In this document: positions 12-8,346 of the stretch, piece by piece | How the letters are laid out: the number at the start of each line of letters is the position of its first letter | Position numbering within the stretch: position 1 is the first letter of the stretch | Assembly: GCF_013315695.1 (NCBI RefSeq) | Contig: NZ_CP054353.1 | Length of the DNA: 64,000 bases | Reading direction: 5' to 3' (one strand) | Source: Escherichia coli | GTDB taxonomy: Bacteria; Pseudomonadota; Gammaproteobacteria; Enterobacterales; Enterobacteriaceae | Translations under genes and position numbers: made by a program | The notes under the pieces: model-generated | Seen by the model: only the letters and a program-made list of their open reading frames with translations | Told to the model about the DNA's origin: nothing | Database searches by the model: none

Positions 12-1067
12 TTAACCAATTTTGACGGTAACAAATTTGCGAATATCTGCCGGAACCGGCTGCGGTGCGCTGTGCGTCTGCACGTACTCAATCGCCGGAT
101 CGCCGTCCTCAATCCAGTTTTTCGGGTAAAACATGTTTTGCGTTGCGCCCGTTCTTACCGCTTCCTGTTCCAGGATCGCACCATAGGCCACCAGCCCTTT
201 ATTGTTGGTGTTGCCCAGGACCAGCAAATCAGGCTCAAGGAAATATTTTTCTGTGCCGTCGCTGTCAGTGTATTTGCCGGAATAGACGATAAGGGCCAGA
301 TCACCAAGATAGCCTTTAAAGCTCACCACTTCGCCCAGGTTTTTACATGCCAGCTCTGCGGCGGATTCTGAACCACGGGAGAGATCGTACAGTTCACGGA
401 ATTTTTTAAAGCTGCGTAACATGCGCCATACATCAACGCCCATAATCATGACGTTTGCGGGGCAACCTGCCTGATCTGCGTATAGCTCAATGTCATAGAT
501 TGGGTCGTGTATGTCTTTGTCCTGCTCTGACCATTTTTTACCGTCGGCCTGCTCTATGATGTTTTTTTCCGGTATCTTCCAGTCGATTTCATAGCGCTCT
601 ATGCCTTCGCCCTCAATGATGTTTTTTCCGGTCGTTACCGCATTTACCGCCAGCCATTCCACGCGCGCTTTAATGGCGTTTATCTGGCGGCGCATGTTGC
701 CAGTAATCAGGCGCATACGGCGGTAGGTAGGGTCGTTAAGCTGTGCTGGATCTTCTCCAGCCATGCGCATTATTGTTTTTAATGGATCGATTTCGTGTTT
801 TGGCTTCATGTAGCCAGGGCGAATAATGCTTGTTTCGTACCCTTTATCGCGCTGAACCTGGCTACCCACCATAGGCGAACAAAACGCCGACATAGTGACT
901 TCTTCAATATCCAGGTTATCTAACATGATGTCCTGTGTGTTGAATGTCGCCACGTTCGGGAAAAACAGCGCGGTAAACAGCGGACTGAATTTAAATTCCG
1001 CAATATCCTCGCGATTCAGGTACGCAAAAAGCTGGTTAGTGTTAAGTGCTATTGCTTTTACTGTCAT
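12..1067 (-). CDS. Major capsid protein, lambda gpE family
   Basis: 351-aa ORF; translation shares many conserved blocks with lambda E as I recall it (GY.KPKHE, DP.YRR.R, RSFK, RGS.SE, VYSG.Y, VLGNT, YPKNW..GDPA, QSAP). Start overlaps stop of upstream gene (TAATG); GGGGGTGA RBS. Confidence 0.8.
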   Translation of the reverse strand: MTVKAIALNTNQLFAYLNREDIAEFKFSPLFTALFFPNVATFNTQDIMLDNLDIEEVTMSAFCSPMVGSQVQRDKGYETSIIRPGYMKPKHEIDPLKTIMRMAGEDPAQLNDPTYRRMRLITGNMRRQINAIKARVEWLAVNAVTTGKNIIEGEGIERYEIDWKIPEKNIIEQADGKKWSEQDKDIHDPIYDIELYADQAGCPANVMIMGVDVWRMLRSFKKFRELYDLSRGSESAAELACKNLGEVVSFKGYLGDLALIVYSGKYTDSDGTEKYFLEPDLLVLGNTNNKGLVAYGAILEQEAVRTGATQNMFYPKNWIEDGDPAIEYVQTHSAPQPVPADIRKFVTVKIG

Positions 1068-1273
1068 TATTCACCCCCGTGAACCTGATTCATACCCAGC
1101 GCCGCGCGTAAATAGGCGCGTACCTGCCAGCCTGTTGACGGCTCAACCATCGCCAGCGGATCAAGTCCTGCCGCAATGCCTGCTTTTACGTTCTGCTGGT
1201 GGCGTTCCTTGAGCGCCTTCACGATGTCGGGGCTTATGTACACCGAAACACCGCCTTTTTTCTCTTCAGCCAT
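1067..1273 (-). CDS. Hypothetical small protein (68 aa), first gene of capsid operon
   Basis: ORF with AAGAGGA RBS ~10 nt upstream; translationally coupled to capsid gene; no recognisable family. Confidence 0.45.
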   Translation of the reverse strand: MAEEKKGGVSVYISPDIVKALKERHQQNVKAGIAAGLDPLAMVEPSTGWQVRAYLRAALGMNQVHGGE

Positions 1274-1304
1274 AGTAAGAAATTCCTCTTTGACTTAAAA
1301 AATC

Positions 1305-1358
1305 ATAACTGGATGTTCATCCAGTTATGATTATAATCATGATTGCATTTTGTGCAAT
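1305..1358 (-). promoter_or_regulatory. Promoter/operator of capsid operon: three adjacent palindromes overlapping sigma70-like -35/-10
   Basis: Perfect 24-bp palindrome ATAACTGGATG-TT-CATCCAGTTAT (1305-1328); 14-bp palindrome ATGATTATAATCAT (1327-1340) containing TATAAT on minus strand; ATTGCA-N5-TGCAAT (1342-1358) containing TTGCAC -35 at 16-bp spacing. Confidence 0.5.
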
Positions 1359-1436
1359 GATATTGAGTTGCGTTGCAAATTATGAAATTATTATCCCGAT
1401 CATGTGTGTCAGTGCACCAAAAAACCTCATATGCAA

Positions 1437-1510
1437 AAGCCCGATAAGCCACCTCTGACCTTATCGGGCTTTTTTTGGGCGCAAAAAAGCCGGATTGCTC
1501 CGGCTGTGTG
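1437..1510 (-). terminator. Two tandem hairpin terminators downstream of PerC-like gene
   Basis: GCCCGATAAG...CTTATCGGGC hairpin flanked by A-run and T-run (bidirectional), then AGCCGG-attgct-CCGGCT hairpin followed by T-run on minus strand. Confidence 0.5.
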
Positions 1511-1527: not shown

Positions 1528-1776
1528 CTACTCTGCTAATTTGCTCAGCCCCATGTCTGCGTAAGTGCGATTTACTGCATTTCTCAGGTCTGCATAGTTC
1601 TCCGTTGGCGGCTCCGGTGGCCTCTGTGCCTTCCTGGAACATTCCAGCCGTCGCATCGTGATGTGATGCCGTTCCTTGTCTGTCTCCACCAGCATCATGA
1701 CTTCACCCCATCGCGCCGCCGCCCTCCGGTAAAATCCTTTCGCTTCGAGTTCTTCCGCTATGCGGTCATGTACCAT
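1528..1776 (-). CDS. PerC-like transcriptional regulator (82 aa)
   Basis: Start chosen at internal ATG with GAGGGGGTGA RBS 10 nt after SSB stop; motif AEELEAKGFYRRAAARW resembles the PerC/Pch family signature from memory; needs profile search. Confidence 0.45.
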   Translation of the reverse strand: MVHDRIAEELEAKGFYRRAAARWGEVMMLVETDKERHHITMRRLECSRKAQRPPEPPTENYADLRNAVNRTYADMGLSKLAE

Positions 1777-1786
1777 CGTCACCCCC

Positions 1787-2197
1787 TCAGAACGGAATAT
1801 CATCACCGTAAGGGTCATCGCCTCCCGCTGGTGGCTGATTACCCTGTGCGCCTGTGGTTTTGCGTCTGTTCCCGCCAGGACGTGCCGCACGGGCACTGAT
1901 TACGCTGTCTGCAATAACCTGATAACCCTGACGCGTCTCCCCGTTCTGTCCGGTCCACTGGCTTACCTGCATCGTGCCGGATACGCTGGCAACGTCGCCT
2001 TTTTGATGTTTAGCCAGGAAGTCGGCCTGCTTACCAAATGCGATGACCGATAGCCATAACGTCGCCTGTCCGTCCTGTGCCTGACTGCATGGCAGTGATA
2101 CCGCCATACGCGCCAGCGTCATCGGTGTGCCCTTGCTGGTCTGTTTTACCTGCGGGTCGTCCACCAGCCGACCGTAAGCCGCTATCTGTGCTGTCAT
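1787..2197 (-). CDS. ssb: Single-stranded DNA-binding protein (SSB)
   Basis: 136-aa ORF, Gly/Pro/Gln-rich C-terminal linker ending in acidic tip ...GDDIPF, the hallmark SSB C-terminus; GGAGAGGTGG RBS; ATGA overlap with upstream gene. Confidence 0.8.
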   Translation of the reverse strand: MTAQIAAYGRLVDDPQVKQTSKGTPMTLARMAVSLPCSQAQDGQATLWLSVIAFGKQADFLAKHQKGDVASVSGTMQVSQWTGQNGETRQGYQVIADSVISARAARPGGNRRKTTGAQGNQPPAGGDDPYGDDIPF

Positions 2198-2815: not shown

Positions 2816-4939
2816 TTAATCTTCATCATCAGGCTGGAACATCAGCACGTAAAAAACATGCTGCTTACCCCCAATCTTGCCCAGCGCCTTTTTTTTGTAT
2901 CGGCGATCGCTTCCCTTCTCCAGCATTCCGGCAGCATCCAGGGCACGCGCAAAATGCGCCGGATTAAATCCCTTCGCTATCTCACTCTCAAACACGTGCG
3001 GGAACGTGTAATAGCGCATCTCGTCATCTTCGTTGCGAATGCTCCCTTTTCTGTATCCGGCAAGCTCTTTAATCGGTAAATCACGCTCATCTGTATTGGG
3101 GTACGGAAGGTAGCGGCTAAACCCAAACGACGACAAAAACGCCTCAGCCTGTTCAACCATCTGTTTAAATTCCCTGTTACCCGTGCCGAACTCCTTCACC
3201 CAGGCATTAAAGTTATGCTGTATCGCGTCGCGGCATTCCTGCACGACCCAGCCAGTTACATGACCGGAAAGCACAAGCGCGGCCTCCAGTATGGCGAAAC
3301 GTTCACCCACGCGGTGGACCTGCTCGCCGTAGCTCTCCGGTATCAGGTTGCGCCACCGTTCGCGGCATTCCCTTACCGTATCCTTTGCCTCCTGCTGGTG
3401 GCCTGCCAGCCATTTAACCCACTCACGACCCGCCGCCCCGTGATTTGCTGTCCAGGCATCCTTTAACGCGTCAGCATGTTCCTTACCGTTGCTGTATTCG
3501 TGAAATTTCGTGGCTTTTTCCATCGGAACGTTAAGCAGTCGGACAAGCTGCCCCGCCTTAACTTTTATCCCCTCACTTTTGAGGAATGTCTCAACGTCCA
3601 TTTCTCCGGTGCTGATTGCCACCGTTCGCCAGTGTTTGATCTCCCTGTTGCCGCCATCCTTCGCCCCCTGCAATTTCCCTGAACCGTTAAACAGCGTATA
3701 AGCAGACGTTGACACTTCCCGCGCATTTCCGGCCTGGCCTATCTCATCCAGTGGTAAAAGCCCGTCATTATGGGCCTCGGCCTCATTGGCAATACCTAAC
3801 GCCGTGCCGTACCAGGTCAGCCGCTGCGCGTCCGGCTCTCCCCATAAACTTGATGCGATGTTCTGCGTGGTGGTCTTACCTGCCGATGACTGTTCGAAAA
3901 GATGCACCCCGAAGCCGTCAGCACCCACAAGGCCAATTAAAGGCGCTGCCAGTGACGTTGCCACACCCAGCATCATTGAGGCATTACCGCCAGCCAGCCG
4001 CGCCACACTCTCGCGCCAGCCCTCCGCCGTACCCGCCACGGAATAACCGTTAATCGCGGCGCTTTTTCCGGTAAACAGGATCGGTTTTTCAGAATCACCA
4101 ATGATCGAACCGTCCGGCATGATGTACGCGCCAAAATGCCAGCCCGTTGTTGTGCTTAACTGCCATTCCTCATGGCTTCCGCTTAACTGCATCCAGTCCG
4201 CCAGGATTGCCCTGTATTTGCCGTTGGTTGTCACGTTCAGCCCGTGATCTTTAAGTAACCGCCAGCCGTCACGGTCGCCGATACCACCACACGGGATCGC
4301 CATTGTGATGACTTCATGATTTGCTAATTTTTTCCAGCGCATGACGCGGTAATGCTCTTTACCGATCGTCCCCGTTCCCAGTAGTTCAAGCGGAGAACAT
4401 AACCACGTCTCAGGCCGGATAATTTCGCCTGACTGCTTATCCACTTTGGGCGTTACCCAGAAAACACCATCGGCGCGACTTTCAACGCGTGGCTTTAATT
4501 CGTCATCGCTATGGCTTCCGGTATCTTTTTTCTTTACCGGAAACTCAATAACCAGACCATCAGAAAGATTCTGCCGCTCACGGGCCAGATATTCGCGCCA
4601 GTTCTCCACCTCCTGACCGTGCATTCCATCAGGGTAAAAATTTGCATCCTGTACGCCTGCCGCCGCCAGCTTCTGACCAATCGCCTTGATCATTACTGGC
4701 TCAAGATGTCCGGCCCTGAATATGCGTACTGATTTTCGGCCTTCCGGCACAATTTGCAGCTTATCCAGTTCGGCAAGTTGTTGCTCTCCAAGCCAGACAG
4801 GAGGCACGTTATCGCCAGCCAGTCGCCCGTCCTGTTCCTGCCACTGTTTCGCATGTGCCCAGGCATCACTACCCGCAAAAATGATGACTTCCGTCATTTT
4901 GTCACGTGGCTGGTGTTTTAAATTTGGCGCTTTTTTCAT
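2816..4939 (-). CDS. Primase-helicase (P4 alpha-like, D5/SF3-type)
   Basis: ~707-aa ORF; Walker A-like SSAGKTTT; size and position (next to iteron ori, downstream of int/alpA) typical of satellite replication proteins. Likely start ATG at 4939 with GGAGAG RBS, overlapping upstream stop (ATGA); ORF track extends to 4954. Confidence 0.75.
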   Translation of the reverse strand: MKKAPNLKHQPRDKMTEVIIFAGSDAWAHAKQWQEQDGRLAGDNVPPVWLGEQQLAELDKLQIVPEGRKSVRIFRAGHLEPVMIKAIGQKLAAAGVQDANFYPDGMHGQEVENWREYLARERQNLSDGLVIEFPVKKKDTGSHSDDELKPRVESRADGVFWVTPKVDKQSGEIIRPETWLCSPLELLGTGTIGKEHYRVMRWKKLANHEVITMAIPCGGIGDRDGWRLLKDHGLNVTTNGKYRAILADWMQLSGSHEEWQLSTTTGWHFGAYIMPDGSIIGDSEKPILFTGKSAAINGYSVAGTAEGWRESVARLAGGNASMMLGVATSLAAPLIGLVGADGFGVHLFEQSSAGKTTTQNIASSLWGEPDAQRLTWYGTALGIANEAEAHNDGLLPLDEIGQAGNAREVSTSAYTLFNGSGKLQGAKDGGNREIKHWRTVAISTGEMDVETFLKSEGIKVKAGQLVRLLNVPMEKATKFHEYSNGKEHADALKDAWTANHGAAGREWVKWLAGHQQEAKDTVRECRERWRNLIPESYGEQVHRVGERFAILEAALVLSGHVTGWVVQECRDAIQHNFNAWVKEFGTGNREFKQMVEQAEAFLSSFGFSRYLPYPNTDERDLPIKELAGYRKGSIRNEDDEMRYYTFPHVFESEIAKGFNPAHFARALDAAGMLEKGSDRRYKKKALGKIGGKQHVFYVLMFQPDDED

Positions 4940-5235
4940 TTCTGCTCTCTCCACGCGGCAATCATGTTTTTCAGTTCCTGTAGTTTTTTATCCACATCCA
5001 CACGTGACACATGGTTATTTCTGGAAGTCGGGATTTCCCGCCTGAATCTGCTAATAAAGATCTCCACGTTCAGCGAACTATGAAATGAATAGCCATCACG
5101 AATAAAATACACACGGTCAAACATCAGTTCTTTTACCGTTACTCTGTTGCCGTTCTTATCCAGATAAATAGCGCCGGGGATAATTTTGGGGTGTGCATAA
5201 CCGCTGGCAGTCAAGCCAGATAAATATGTTCTCAT
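4936..5235 (-). CDS. Hypothetical protein (99 aa), low-GC cargo
   Basis: ORF translationally coupled to primase gene (ATGA); local GC ~30-38% versus ~50% for neighbours; no recognised domain. Confidence 0.5.
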   Translation of the reverse strand: MRTYLSGLTASGYAHPKIIPGAIYLDKNGNRVTVKELMFDRVYFIRDGYSFHSSLNVEIFISRFRREIPTSRNNHVSRVDVDKKLQELKNMIAAWREQK

Positions 5236-7107: not shown

Positions 7108-8346
7108 TCAAGAATTTTGGGAGTAAATTCGCGGGGTCATAACAACGATTTTTTCATCATTGTTCTGGAGAAGCTCGAGACGCTCAACCCATAGATTAAG
7201 AGCGTCACGTTTTGCATCGAGATAACGGGAGTGATTATAGACTCGTTGCATTCCTGGCAACTGGTGCGCGGTTAGCTGCTCCACTACATGAGGATCCACG
7301 CCTAAATCGTTCAGCATCGTTGTAAACGTGTGCCGGATGTCGTGCAACGTCCAGGGGGCTTGATTAATGCGTCTGTGTGCCGTTCTTCCGTACTCTGATA
7401 CAGATGATTGCCCTTTCAGTTCTCCGAGTAATAAGCCCGTGTGTCGGTTCTGCTCCACCAGCTTCGTTACGAACGGCAAGATCGCTTCCGGTATTGGCCT
7501 GAATATTGCTACCTTCGTTTTGCTGTGTTCTTTCGGCACAGTCCAGAGCATTTCTTTAAAATCCCATTCCTGGACCTCAGAGCGTCTTAGCTCAGTGGTA
7601 CGGCATCCGAAGACAATCAGGAGGCGAATCAGGGCGCTGTAGTACGGTGTGTAAATTTTTTCATCCAGGGCGCGTAGTAATTCCCCAAGCTCCTTGTTTG
7701 TTAGTACGCGCTCGCTTATTTCTGCTTTTTTCCCAACATCACCTACAACCATATCATCTAGAACGTTGGTAATTGCGTAGCGTCGTTTGCGGCAGTACTT
7801 AAGCGCCTGCTTGCATACCTGTAACAAAAATCCTGCTGATACCGGATTACGCATAGCAAGCTGATCAAAACAGGTCAGCCAGTGGCGTAGCTCGCATTTT
7901 TCCAGCGGCATAGCACCAATATGGCTGATTATGTGTGTATTGATCCGGCTTTTCAGAGATTCGTAATCTGTGCGCTTTTCCTTCGCGTACGATTCAAGCC
8001 AGTAAGTGAGCGCTTCCTTAACCGTAACAGGTGATAACGCTTCCTGTACGGTGTGATTAAGCTCATGGCGTGGATTTTTACCCTCAGCAAGCCAGGCGCG
8101 ACACTGCGACGCTTTTTCCCTGGCTGCTTTCAGGCTCAAATCTGGATAATTTCCCAGCCTCAGACGTTCAGGGGCTACCTTCCTGCCTGTTCCGGCCCTG
8201 TAAGTGAAATACCAGGTTAACAGGCCATTGGTTGAATGCCTTACGCTAAGGTTGCCACCATCATTAAAAAAGGTGTTTTTTGTGGTTGGTGATCCGCTTA
8301 ATTTTCGTAAAAGAGTGTCGCTAAGTCTATGAATTGCCCTGCTCAT
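7108..8346 (-). CDS. int: Tyrosine-type site-specific integrase
   Basis: 412-aa ORF; C-terminal catalytic region with HDIRHT and ...VYNHSRY (R-H-R-Y family pattern); located at island edge next to host gene. Confidence 0.85.
   Translation of the reverse strand: MSRAIHRLSDTLLRKLSGSPTTKNTFFNDGGNLSVRHSTNGLLTWYFTYRAGTGRKVAPERLRLGNYPDLSLKAAREKASQCRAWLAEGKNPRHELNHTVQEALSPVTVKEALTYWLESYAKEKRTDYESLKSRINTHIISHIGAMPLEKCELRHWLTCFDQLAMRNPVSAGFLLQVCKQALKYCRKRRYAITNVLDDMVVGDVGKKAEISERVLTNKELGELLRALDEKIYTPYYSALIRLLIVFGCRTTELRRSEVQEWDFKEMLWTVPKEHSKTKVAIFRPIPEAILPFVTKLVEQNRHTGLLLGELKGQSSVSEYGRTAHRRINQAPWTLHDIRHTFTTMLNDLGVDPHVVEQLTAHQLPGMQRVYNHSRYLDAKRDALNLWVERLELLQNNDEKIVVMTPRIYSQNS

Follow-up and report, generated by a model that had tools for sequence, protein, structure and literature searches.

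Host LexA controls functions of several mobile elements, among them the colicin operons, tum of coliphage 186 and rstA of CTXphi, with expression tied to DNA damage. The LexA box of Gram-positive bacteria is CGAAC-N4-GTTCG. The Escherichia coli box has the consensus TACTG(TA)5CAGTA (PMC6590174). Among phage satellites, operon I of the SaPIs of Staphylococcus aureus, a packaging and interference module, is LexA-repressed according to a later citation of the original work (Ubeda et al. 2007, as cited in PMC5052747). Gram-negative PICIs have been described as unlike SaPIs in their regulation, with an AlpA activator as against an Stl repressor. Islands of the EcCICFT073 type are described in PMC6092414, where alpA, the island master activator, is helper-responsive and SOS-independent. 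In the literature that we searched, with most subscription journals outside its scope, LexA appears in connection with Gram-negative PICIs solely within citations of SaPI work. We found in it neither the box sequence described below nor a LexA link to these islands, and no start site, LexA binding or SOS induction for the genes considered here; on SOS induction of the O157 island (CP-933C) the search was uninformative.

The stretch of E. coli DNA analysed here (the window) is 64,000 nucleotides long, and its first 8.4 kb are an EcCICFT073-type phage satellite (PICI), located between clpS and cspD and with its core genes all on the minus strand. Annotation of a genome locus identical to it (L001) showed int, alpA, pri-rep, ori iterons and a capsid/decoration module in a single orientation, a length of about 10 kb and insertion at a chromosomal att site. 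The gene organization is the same as in EcCICFT073, and the capsid module is 91–95% identical. The island features that matter for the argument are as follows, in window coordinates.

7108-8346, minus strand: integrase gene.
Minus strand, among the satellite core genes: AlpA-like HTH gene.
2816-4954, minus strand: DUF927 primase gene.
About 2460-2800: GCGGGTTA iterons.
1787-2197, minus strand: SSB gene.
1528-1776, minus strand: PerC gene.
1435-1505, minus strand: two tandem intrinsic-terminator hairpins at the end of the PerC/SSB/primase transcription unit, kept in relatives.
1067..1273, minus strand: first operon gene, encoding a 68-aa protein (phrog_3255).
12..1067, minus strand: major capsid gene, lambda gpE family (PF03864); the remainder of the operon lies past the window start.

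At the identical locus the operon continues beyond the window with a gpD-like decoration protein and then a 137-aa protein. The repeats that concern us sit in the 254-nt gap upstream of the capsid module, where the operon sense is the minus strand.

The GCGGGTTA(T) iterons occur in both orientations as a dense array downstream of the primase gene (2460-2800) and are presumed to be the island replication origin. The hairpins at 1435-1505 carry A- and T-runs on both sides, which gives them a bidirectional look; they set the PerC gene apart from the capsid promoter and are kept even where the upstream gene differs. The product of the fourth operon gene (137 aa, L001 12171-12584, phrog_1999) resembles head-maturation-protease profiles in their C-terminal part (phrog_53, E = 7e-10), which suggests a Nu3-like scaffold. 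Capsid, decoration and scaffold homologues would then all be island-encoded, although the island is reported to use helper capsids. A 144-aa protein of EcCICFT073 is the packaging-redirection protein RppA (match to PDB 6hlk, E = 5e-31). Its gene is intact in EcCICFT073 and reduced in the window strain's island to a 22-residue C-terminal remnant (L001 11812-11877), and this island may be incapable of hijacking helper packaging. PDB sequence searches with the 137-aa protein and a 93-aa downstream protein gave no match, a capsid-protein scan of genome contigs found no relatives, and Rfam returned nothing near gathering scores.

Within the upstream gap we predict the following elements, given here with the leader of the first gene.

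1372..1388, minus strand (1388->1372): distal motif copy ATTTCATAATTTGCAAC, 30 bp upstream of the proximal centre, with its own centre at about -57.
1342..1358: proximal ATTGCA-N5-TGCAAT, overlapping the -35 and the spacer, centre at about -27.
1352..1357, minus strand: predicted -35 hexamer TTGCAC, separated from the -10 by 16 nt; TTGC is essentially invariant (alignments A1 and A3).
1330..1335, minus strand: predicted -10 hexamer TATAAT, from the sequence; invariant or at least 90% conserved in 90 relatives and kept across genera.
1301-1315 / 1318-1332: extended inverted repeat with 15-nt arms and a 2-nt centre, containing the predicted LexA box.
1307..1326, minus strand (1326->1307): predicted LexA box AACTGGATGAACATCCAGTT, with its CTG-N10-CAG core at 1309-1324.
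1284..1290, minus strand: ribosome-binding site AAGAGGA of the 68-aa gene, invariant in alignment A1 and preceded by a conserved T-run at 1297-1302.

The sequence-only reading had picked out three palindromes in this gap. The largest, taken for a perfect 24-bp palindrome over the start, is indeed there; it is larger than described (15+15-nt arms), and its 2-nt centre is not self-complementary, so that it is no strict palindrome. Its operon-strand sequence is AATCATAACTGGATGAACATCCAGTTATGATT, and arms of at least 15 nt arose in 0 of 2,000 dinucleotide shuffles of the 254-nt intergenic region. The 14-bp palindrome said to contain the TATAAT -10 is present as the perfect palindrome ATGATTATAATCAT at 1327-1340, with TATAAT on the minus strand (1335->1330), and is modestly unlikely by chance (44 of 2,000 shuffles). 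Its inner 12 bp (TGATTATAATCA) are near-invariant and include the six bases of the -10 hexamer, while its outer pair is A–T in 24, C–G in 13 and broken in 17 of the 55 distinct sequences compared. We regard this palindrome mainly as the -10 element itself, and a separate operator is probably not needed to explain it. The third repeat also exists as reported, as ATTGCA-N5-TGCAAT at 1342-1358 with the TTGCAC -35 on the minus strand (1357->1352). With one mismatch allowed, its pattern occurs six times in the window against 5.2 expected, which is chance level, and no covariation was seen in its extended 9-nt arms.

From these elements we infer a sigma-70 promoter for the capsid module, with its start site predicted at 1321-1326 on the minus strand. 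A simple consensus scan misses TTGCAC because it matches TTGACA at only three of six positions. Four other candidate sites were compared by eye with consensus sequences and rejected: a Fur box over the -10 palindrome (about 12 of 19 positions agree, the sequence being AT-rich); a sigma-54 -24/-12 element (GG is absent and the spacing does not fit); a MarA/SoxS marbox (the first half alone matches, and it varies in relatives); and a P2/P4 Ogr/Delta TGT-N12-ACA site, which is absent.

We consider it likely that the large palindrome is a LexA operator of the capsid-module promoter, which SOS would derepress. We scored 20-mers with a matrix made from 18 classical SOS boxes, each of which was located in MG1655, letter for letter, upstream of its own gene. 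Against this matrix AACTGGATGAACATCCAGTT has a heterology index (HI) of 5.9 and 22 bits, within the leave-one-out HI range of the 18 verified boxes (2.2–11.4); in the leave-one-out ranking it would come about 6th of 18, beside dinI, sulA and recA and ahead of ruvAB, with whose box it shares the arms CTGGAT....ATCCAG. The runner-up among all 20-mers of the 64-kb window, at HI 14.9, trails it by nine units. In 297 kb of E. coli DNA, HI values of 10 or less were reached only by the training sites, this box and two others, and shuffles of the same 297 kb gave no site at HI of 6 or less. The box begins 3 nt after TATAAT and covers roughly -3 to +17 of the predicted promoter. We infer LexA binding and SOS inducibility of the capsid promoter from this fit in score, specificity and position, together with the conservation described below. 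The earlier view that dense operators imply tight control by a dimeric regulator thus holds to the extent that a conserved CTG-N10-CAG operator lies over the predicted start; the regulator is most likely host LexA. Against LexA, the box departs from consensus, with a less AT-rich spacer and CTGG in place of CTGT; the capsid and decoration genes of EcCICFT073 are, moreover, dispensable for both transfer and interference (PMC6092414), so that a benefit of such control is not obvious.

Between int and alpA, EcCICFT073 has a further LexA-like site, TACTGTTTTTTTATACACTG (L105 7289-7308; HI 8.3, with CAC replacing CAG), for which there is no equivalent in the window's island.

The region was found in 597 of 5,426 complete E. 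coli genomes (~11%), at 80–100% identity. For comparison we used 12 divergent genome copies and 80 IMG/VR loci, the latter collected through the 68-aa protein, a query independent of the promoter; alignment A1 holds 90 sequences (55 distinct rows) and alignment A3 holds nine. The box stands 33 nt before the ATG in 12/12 E. coli genome copies and in 79/80 IMG/VR loci, the exception being a 1-nt insertion. CTGGAT, CAT and CAG are invariant in the 90 sequences (55 distinct), and such changes as occur in the box are neutral or go toward the LexA consensus (GATG>GATA, ATCCAG>ATACAG, and AA>TT or TA at the centre). EcCICFT073 has the same promoter with an identical box. More distantly, a Salmonella island (66% protein identity) carries GACTGGATAAATATCCAGAT in the unchanged position, and a Pluralibacter island (60% identity) carries AACTGGATGTTTGTCCAGTT about 13 nt further downstream, in both cases without the outer arms. 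At the outer pair (82/103), 21 of the 55 distinct sequences (38%) are unpaired. Since the outer arms are often broken, and are absent in Salmonella and Pluralibacter, the 20-bp box rather than the 32-bp hairpin is the selected unit.

In a metagenomic relative (L110, 63% protein identity) the -35, the -10, the T-run and the RBS are retained, and there is no box. The box is also missing from an island of E. coli JNEC-KY176 (L013, about 640-760) that encodes a different, HK97-type capsid: upstream of its capsid gene it has in common the terminator, the -35 and -10 hexamers and the two ATTKCA motifs, and diverges directly after the -10, which marks a module-exchange (recombination) breakpoint at the promoter. 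LexA control would not be universal in the wider family, because both of these relatives are without the box.

The large repeat could act as RNA, instead of or besides binding LexA, and this we think unlikely. The hairpin might be an intrinsic terminator or attenuator against read-through from the upstream AlpA-driven genes, or a shorter, transcribed 5'-terminal stem-loop with a stabilising role. A terminator scan does flag the large repeat on the operon strand (14 pairs, then TTTT), and the RNA of the window copy folds at -19.8 kcal/mol (z = -6) into a hairpin of 14–15 pairs, of which only 4–5 are G–C, followed by UUUUUU. The outer arms show a few compensatory changes (CACAA/TTGTG, CAGGA/TCCTG, C-G>T-A) besides those of G-U type, and they covary more than shuffles do, in a shuffle control made without correction for relatedness. 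Against this, the stem is broken at the outer pair in the 38% of distinct sequences noted above, the common L004/L024 type folds at just -8.9 kcal/mol (z = -0.9), Salmonella and Pluralibacter lack the outer arms, and L110 has kept the T-run despite having no hairpin. Given the predicted -10, moreover, the operon's own transcripts would begin inside the 5' arm, and two strong terminators already stand 100–170 nt upstream. We mostly reject a terminator role on these grounds of conservation, and see a secondary one as possible. That the palindromes have no regulatory role at all, having arisen as side effects of promoter AT-richness and of module recombination, is very improbable. TATAAT is nearly self-complementary by itself, the third repeat occurs at chance frequency and the L013 breakpoint falls exactly after the -10, all of which such an origin would accommodate; chance is nonetheless excluded for the large repeat by the shuffles of its 15-nt arms, and the box core is invariant amid variable flanks, with a displaced copy surviving in Pluralibacter.

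It is also quite unlikely, in our judgement, that the palindromes are operators for a regulator from the island or a helper, be it the 68-aa protein acting on its own promoter, PerC or a phage late activator. The first operon product is a small helical protein, and in L013 the 68-aa gene and the large palindrome are absent together; both points count in favour of this reading. The AlphaFold (AF2) model of this protein has two helices (pLDDT 73) and no recognizable DNA-binding fold; the RHH assignment made earlier found no backing, with no Pfam match even at E<=10 and no Foldseek match at E<=0.001. PerC, named earlier as a candidate, loses its claim because the box is unchanged in islands without a PerC gene upstream, and PerC is missing beside several islands whose promoter is identical. 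Against any such regulator on the large palindrome, a helper-phage late activator included, the core of the repeat fits the LexA matrix far above chance, and the host repressor is the most likely ligand. The constancy of the box without an adjacent PerC, and the occurrence of the same 68-aa allele beside different flanking bases, favour a host factor.

What LexA does not explain is the ATTGCA-N5-TGCAAT motif, which occurs twice, 30 bp apart. The proximal half-sites TTGCA/TGCAA are conserved and their spacer is variable in Salmonella, Pluralibacter and the metagenomic relative; in the distal copy ATTTCAT and TG.AA are invariant in 9/9 sequences (alignment A3). For both copies, written together as ATTKCA-N5-TGMAAY, the half-sites are thus conserved across genera and the 5-nt spacers vary, a pattern that dimeric DNA-binding proteins commonly leave, which suggests that the pair is an operator of a second regulator. 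The 68-aa protein is a poor candidate, since L013 has both motifs and no 68-aa gene. The alpA promoter region does not contain the motif.

Both residual signals could be accommodated together with LexA in a promoter of three layers, a combination that we hold to be unlikely as a whole. A LexA operator would lie over the start; the 5' arm of the extended palindrome would be nested in the -10, such that AlpA-driven read-through RNA would form the full hairpin and terminate, while the operon's own transcripts, starting inside the arm, would escape; and the ATTKCA pair would cover the -35 and bind a second dimeric regulator of host, island or helper origin. Were this so, the capsid genes would be expressed only when SOS coincided with a second signal, and early transcription of the island would be kept out of them.

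Under LexA control of the box, which we prefer, a LexA dimer on AACTGGATGAACATCCAGTT, which lies directly past the -10 and spans the start site, would occlude RNA polymerase in undamaged cells. DNA damage would activate RecA, LexA would cleave itself and the operon would be derepressed, with expression of the 68-aa protein, the gpE-like capsid protein, the gpD-like decoration protein and the scaffold-like protein. The predicted SOS unit probably consists of these four genes, because EcCICFT073 has a terminator-like hairpin between the fourth gene and rppA. The known helpers of EcCICFT073-type islands (lambda, phi80 and a CFT073 prophage) would, as SOS-inducible prophages, be induced by the same signal, and the induced helper would then switch on AlpA-dependent excision and replication of the island. 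The proposed arrangement would have two keys, a helper signal for excision and replication and host SOS for the capsid module. If this is correct, SOS induced by antibiotics would be linked to the expression of satellite capsid genes. The relevance is mainly to phage-satellite research.

For the ATTKCA half-sites, sequence likeness provides one named candidate, and as a lead only: CytR, which needs CRP. The half-sites contain the pentamers TGCAA/TTGCA of CytR operators, which also occur as GTTGCATT octamers (PMC3454398), and the proximal site of Pluralibacter is GTTGCATT-A-AATGCAAT. Their order is opposite to that of classical TGCAA-N2-3-TTGCA, however, and no flanking CRP sites were seen by eye.

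For the box itself the parallels are closer. Like the SOS boxes of E. coli (ruvAB CGCTGGATATCTATCCAGCA, cho, recA and sulA), it is a 20-bp palindromic CTG-N10-CAG site over the -10/+1 of a sigma-70 promoter, and its score is within the range of proven boxes; unlike them, it is a predicted LexA site that lies upstream of capsid rather than DNA-repair genes and inside a 32-bp inverted repeat. With the colicin operons, 186 tum and CTXphi rstA it shares a host LexA operator, here predicted, on the promoter of a mobile element, but those operators govern lysis, antirepressor or replication functions and not satellite capsid genes. Because LexA boxes are common on mobile elements and the SaPIs set a precedent, we regard this box as a further case of a known kind. 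The likeness to SaPI operon I extends to the arrangement of the module: in both, a capsid- or packaging-related set of PICI genes after the replication origin is under the host SOS repressor (here by prediction), and a separate signal from the helper phage governs excision and replication. The two differ in phylum and in LexA motif, and their genes are unrelated (gpE-, gpD- and Nu3-like here, terS, cpm and pti in SaPIs); rppA of EcCICFT073, being past the terminator, may also be outside the capsid operon. If the box is a LexA operator, both PICI lineages have made a late module directly subject to the SOS repressor of the host, and would have done so by convergence.
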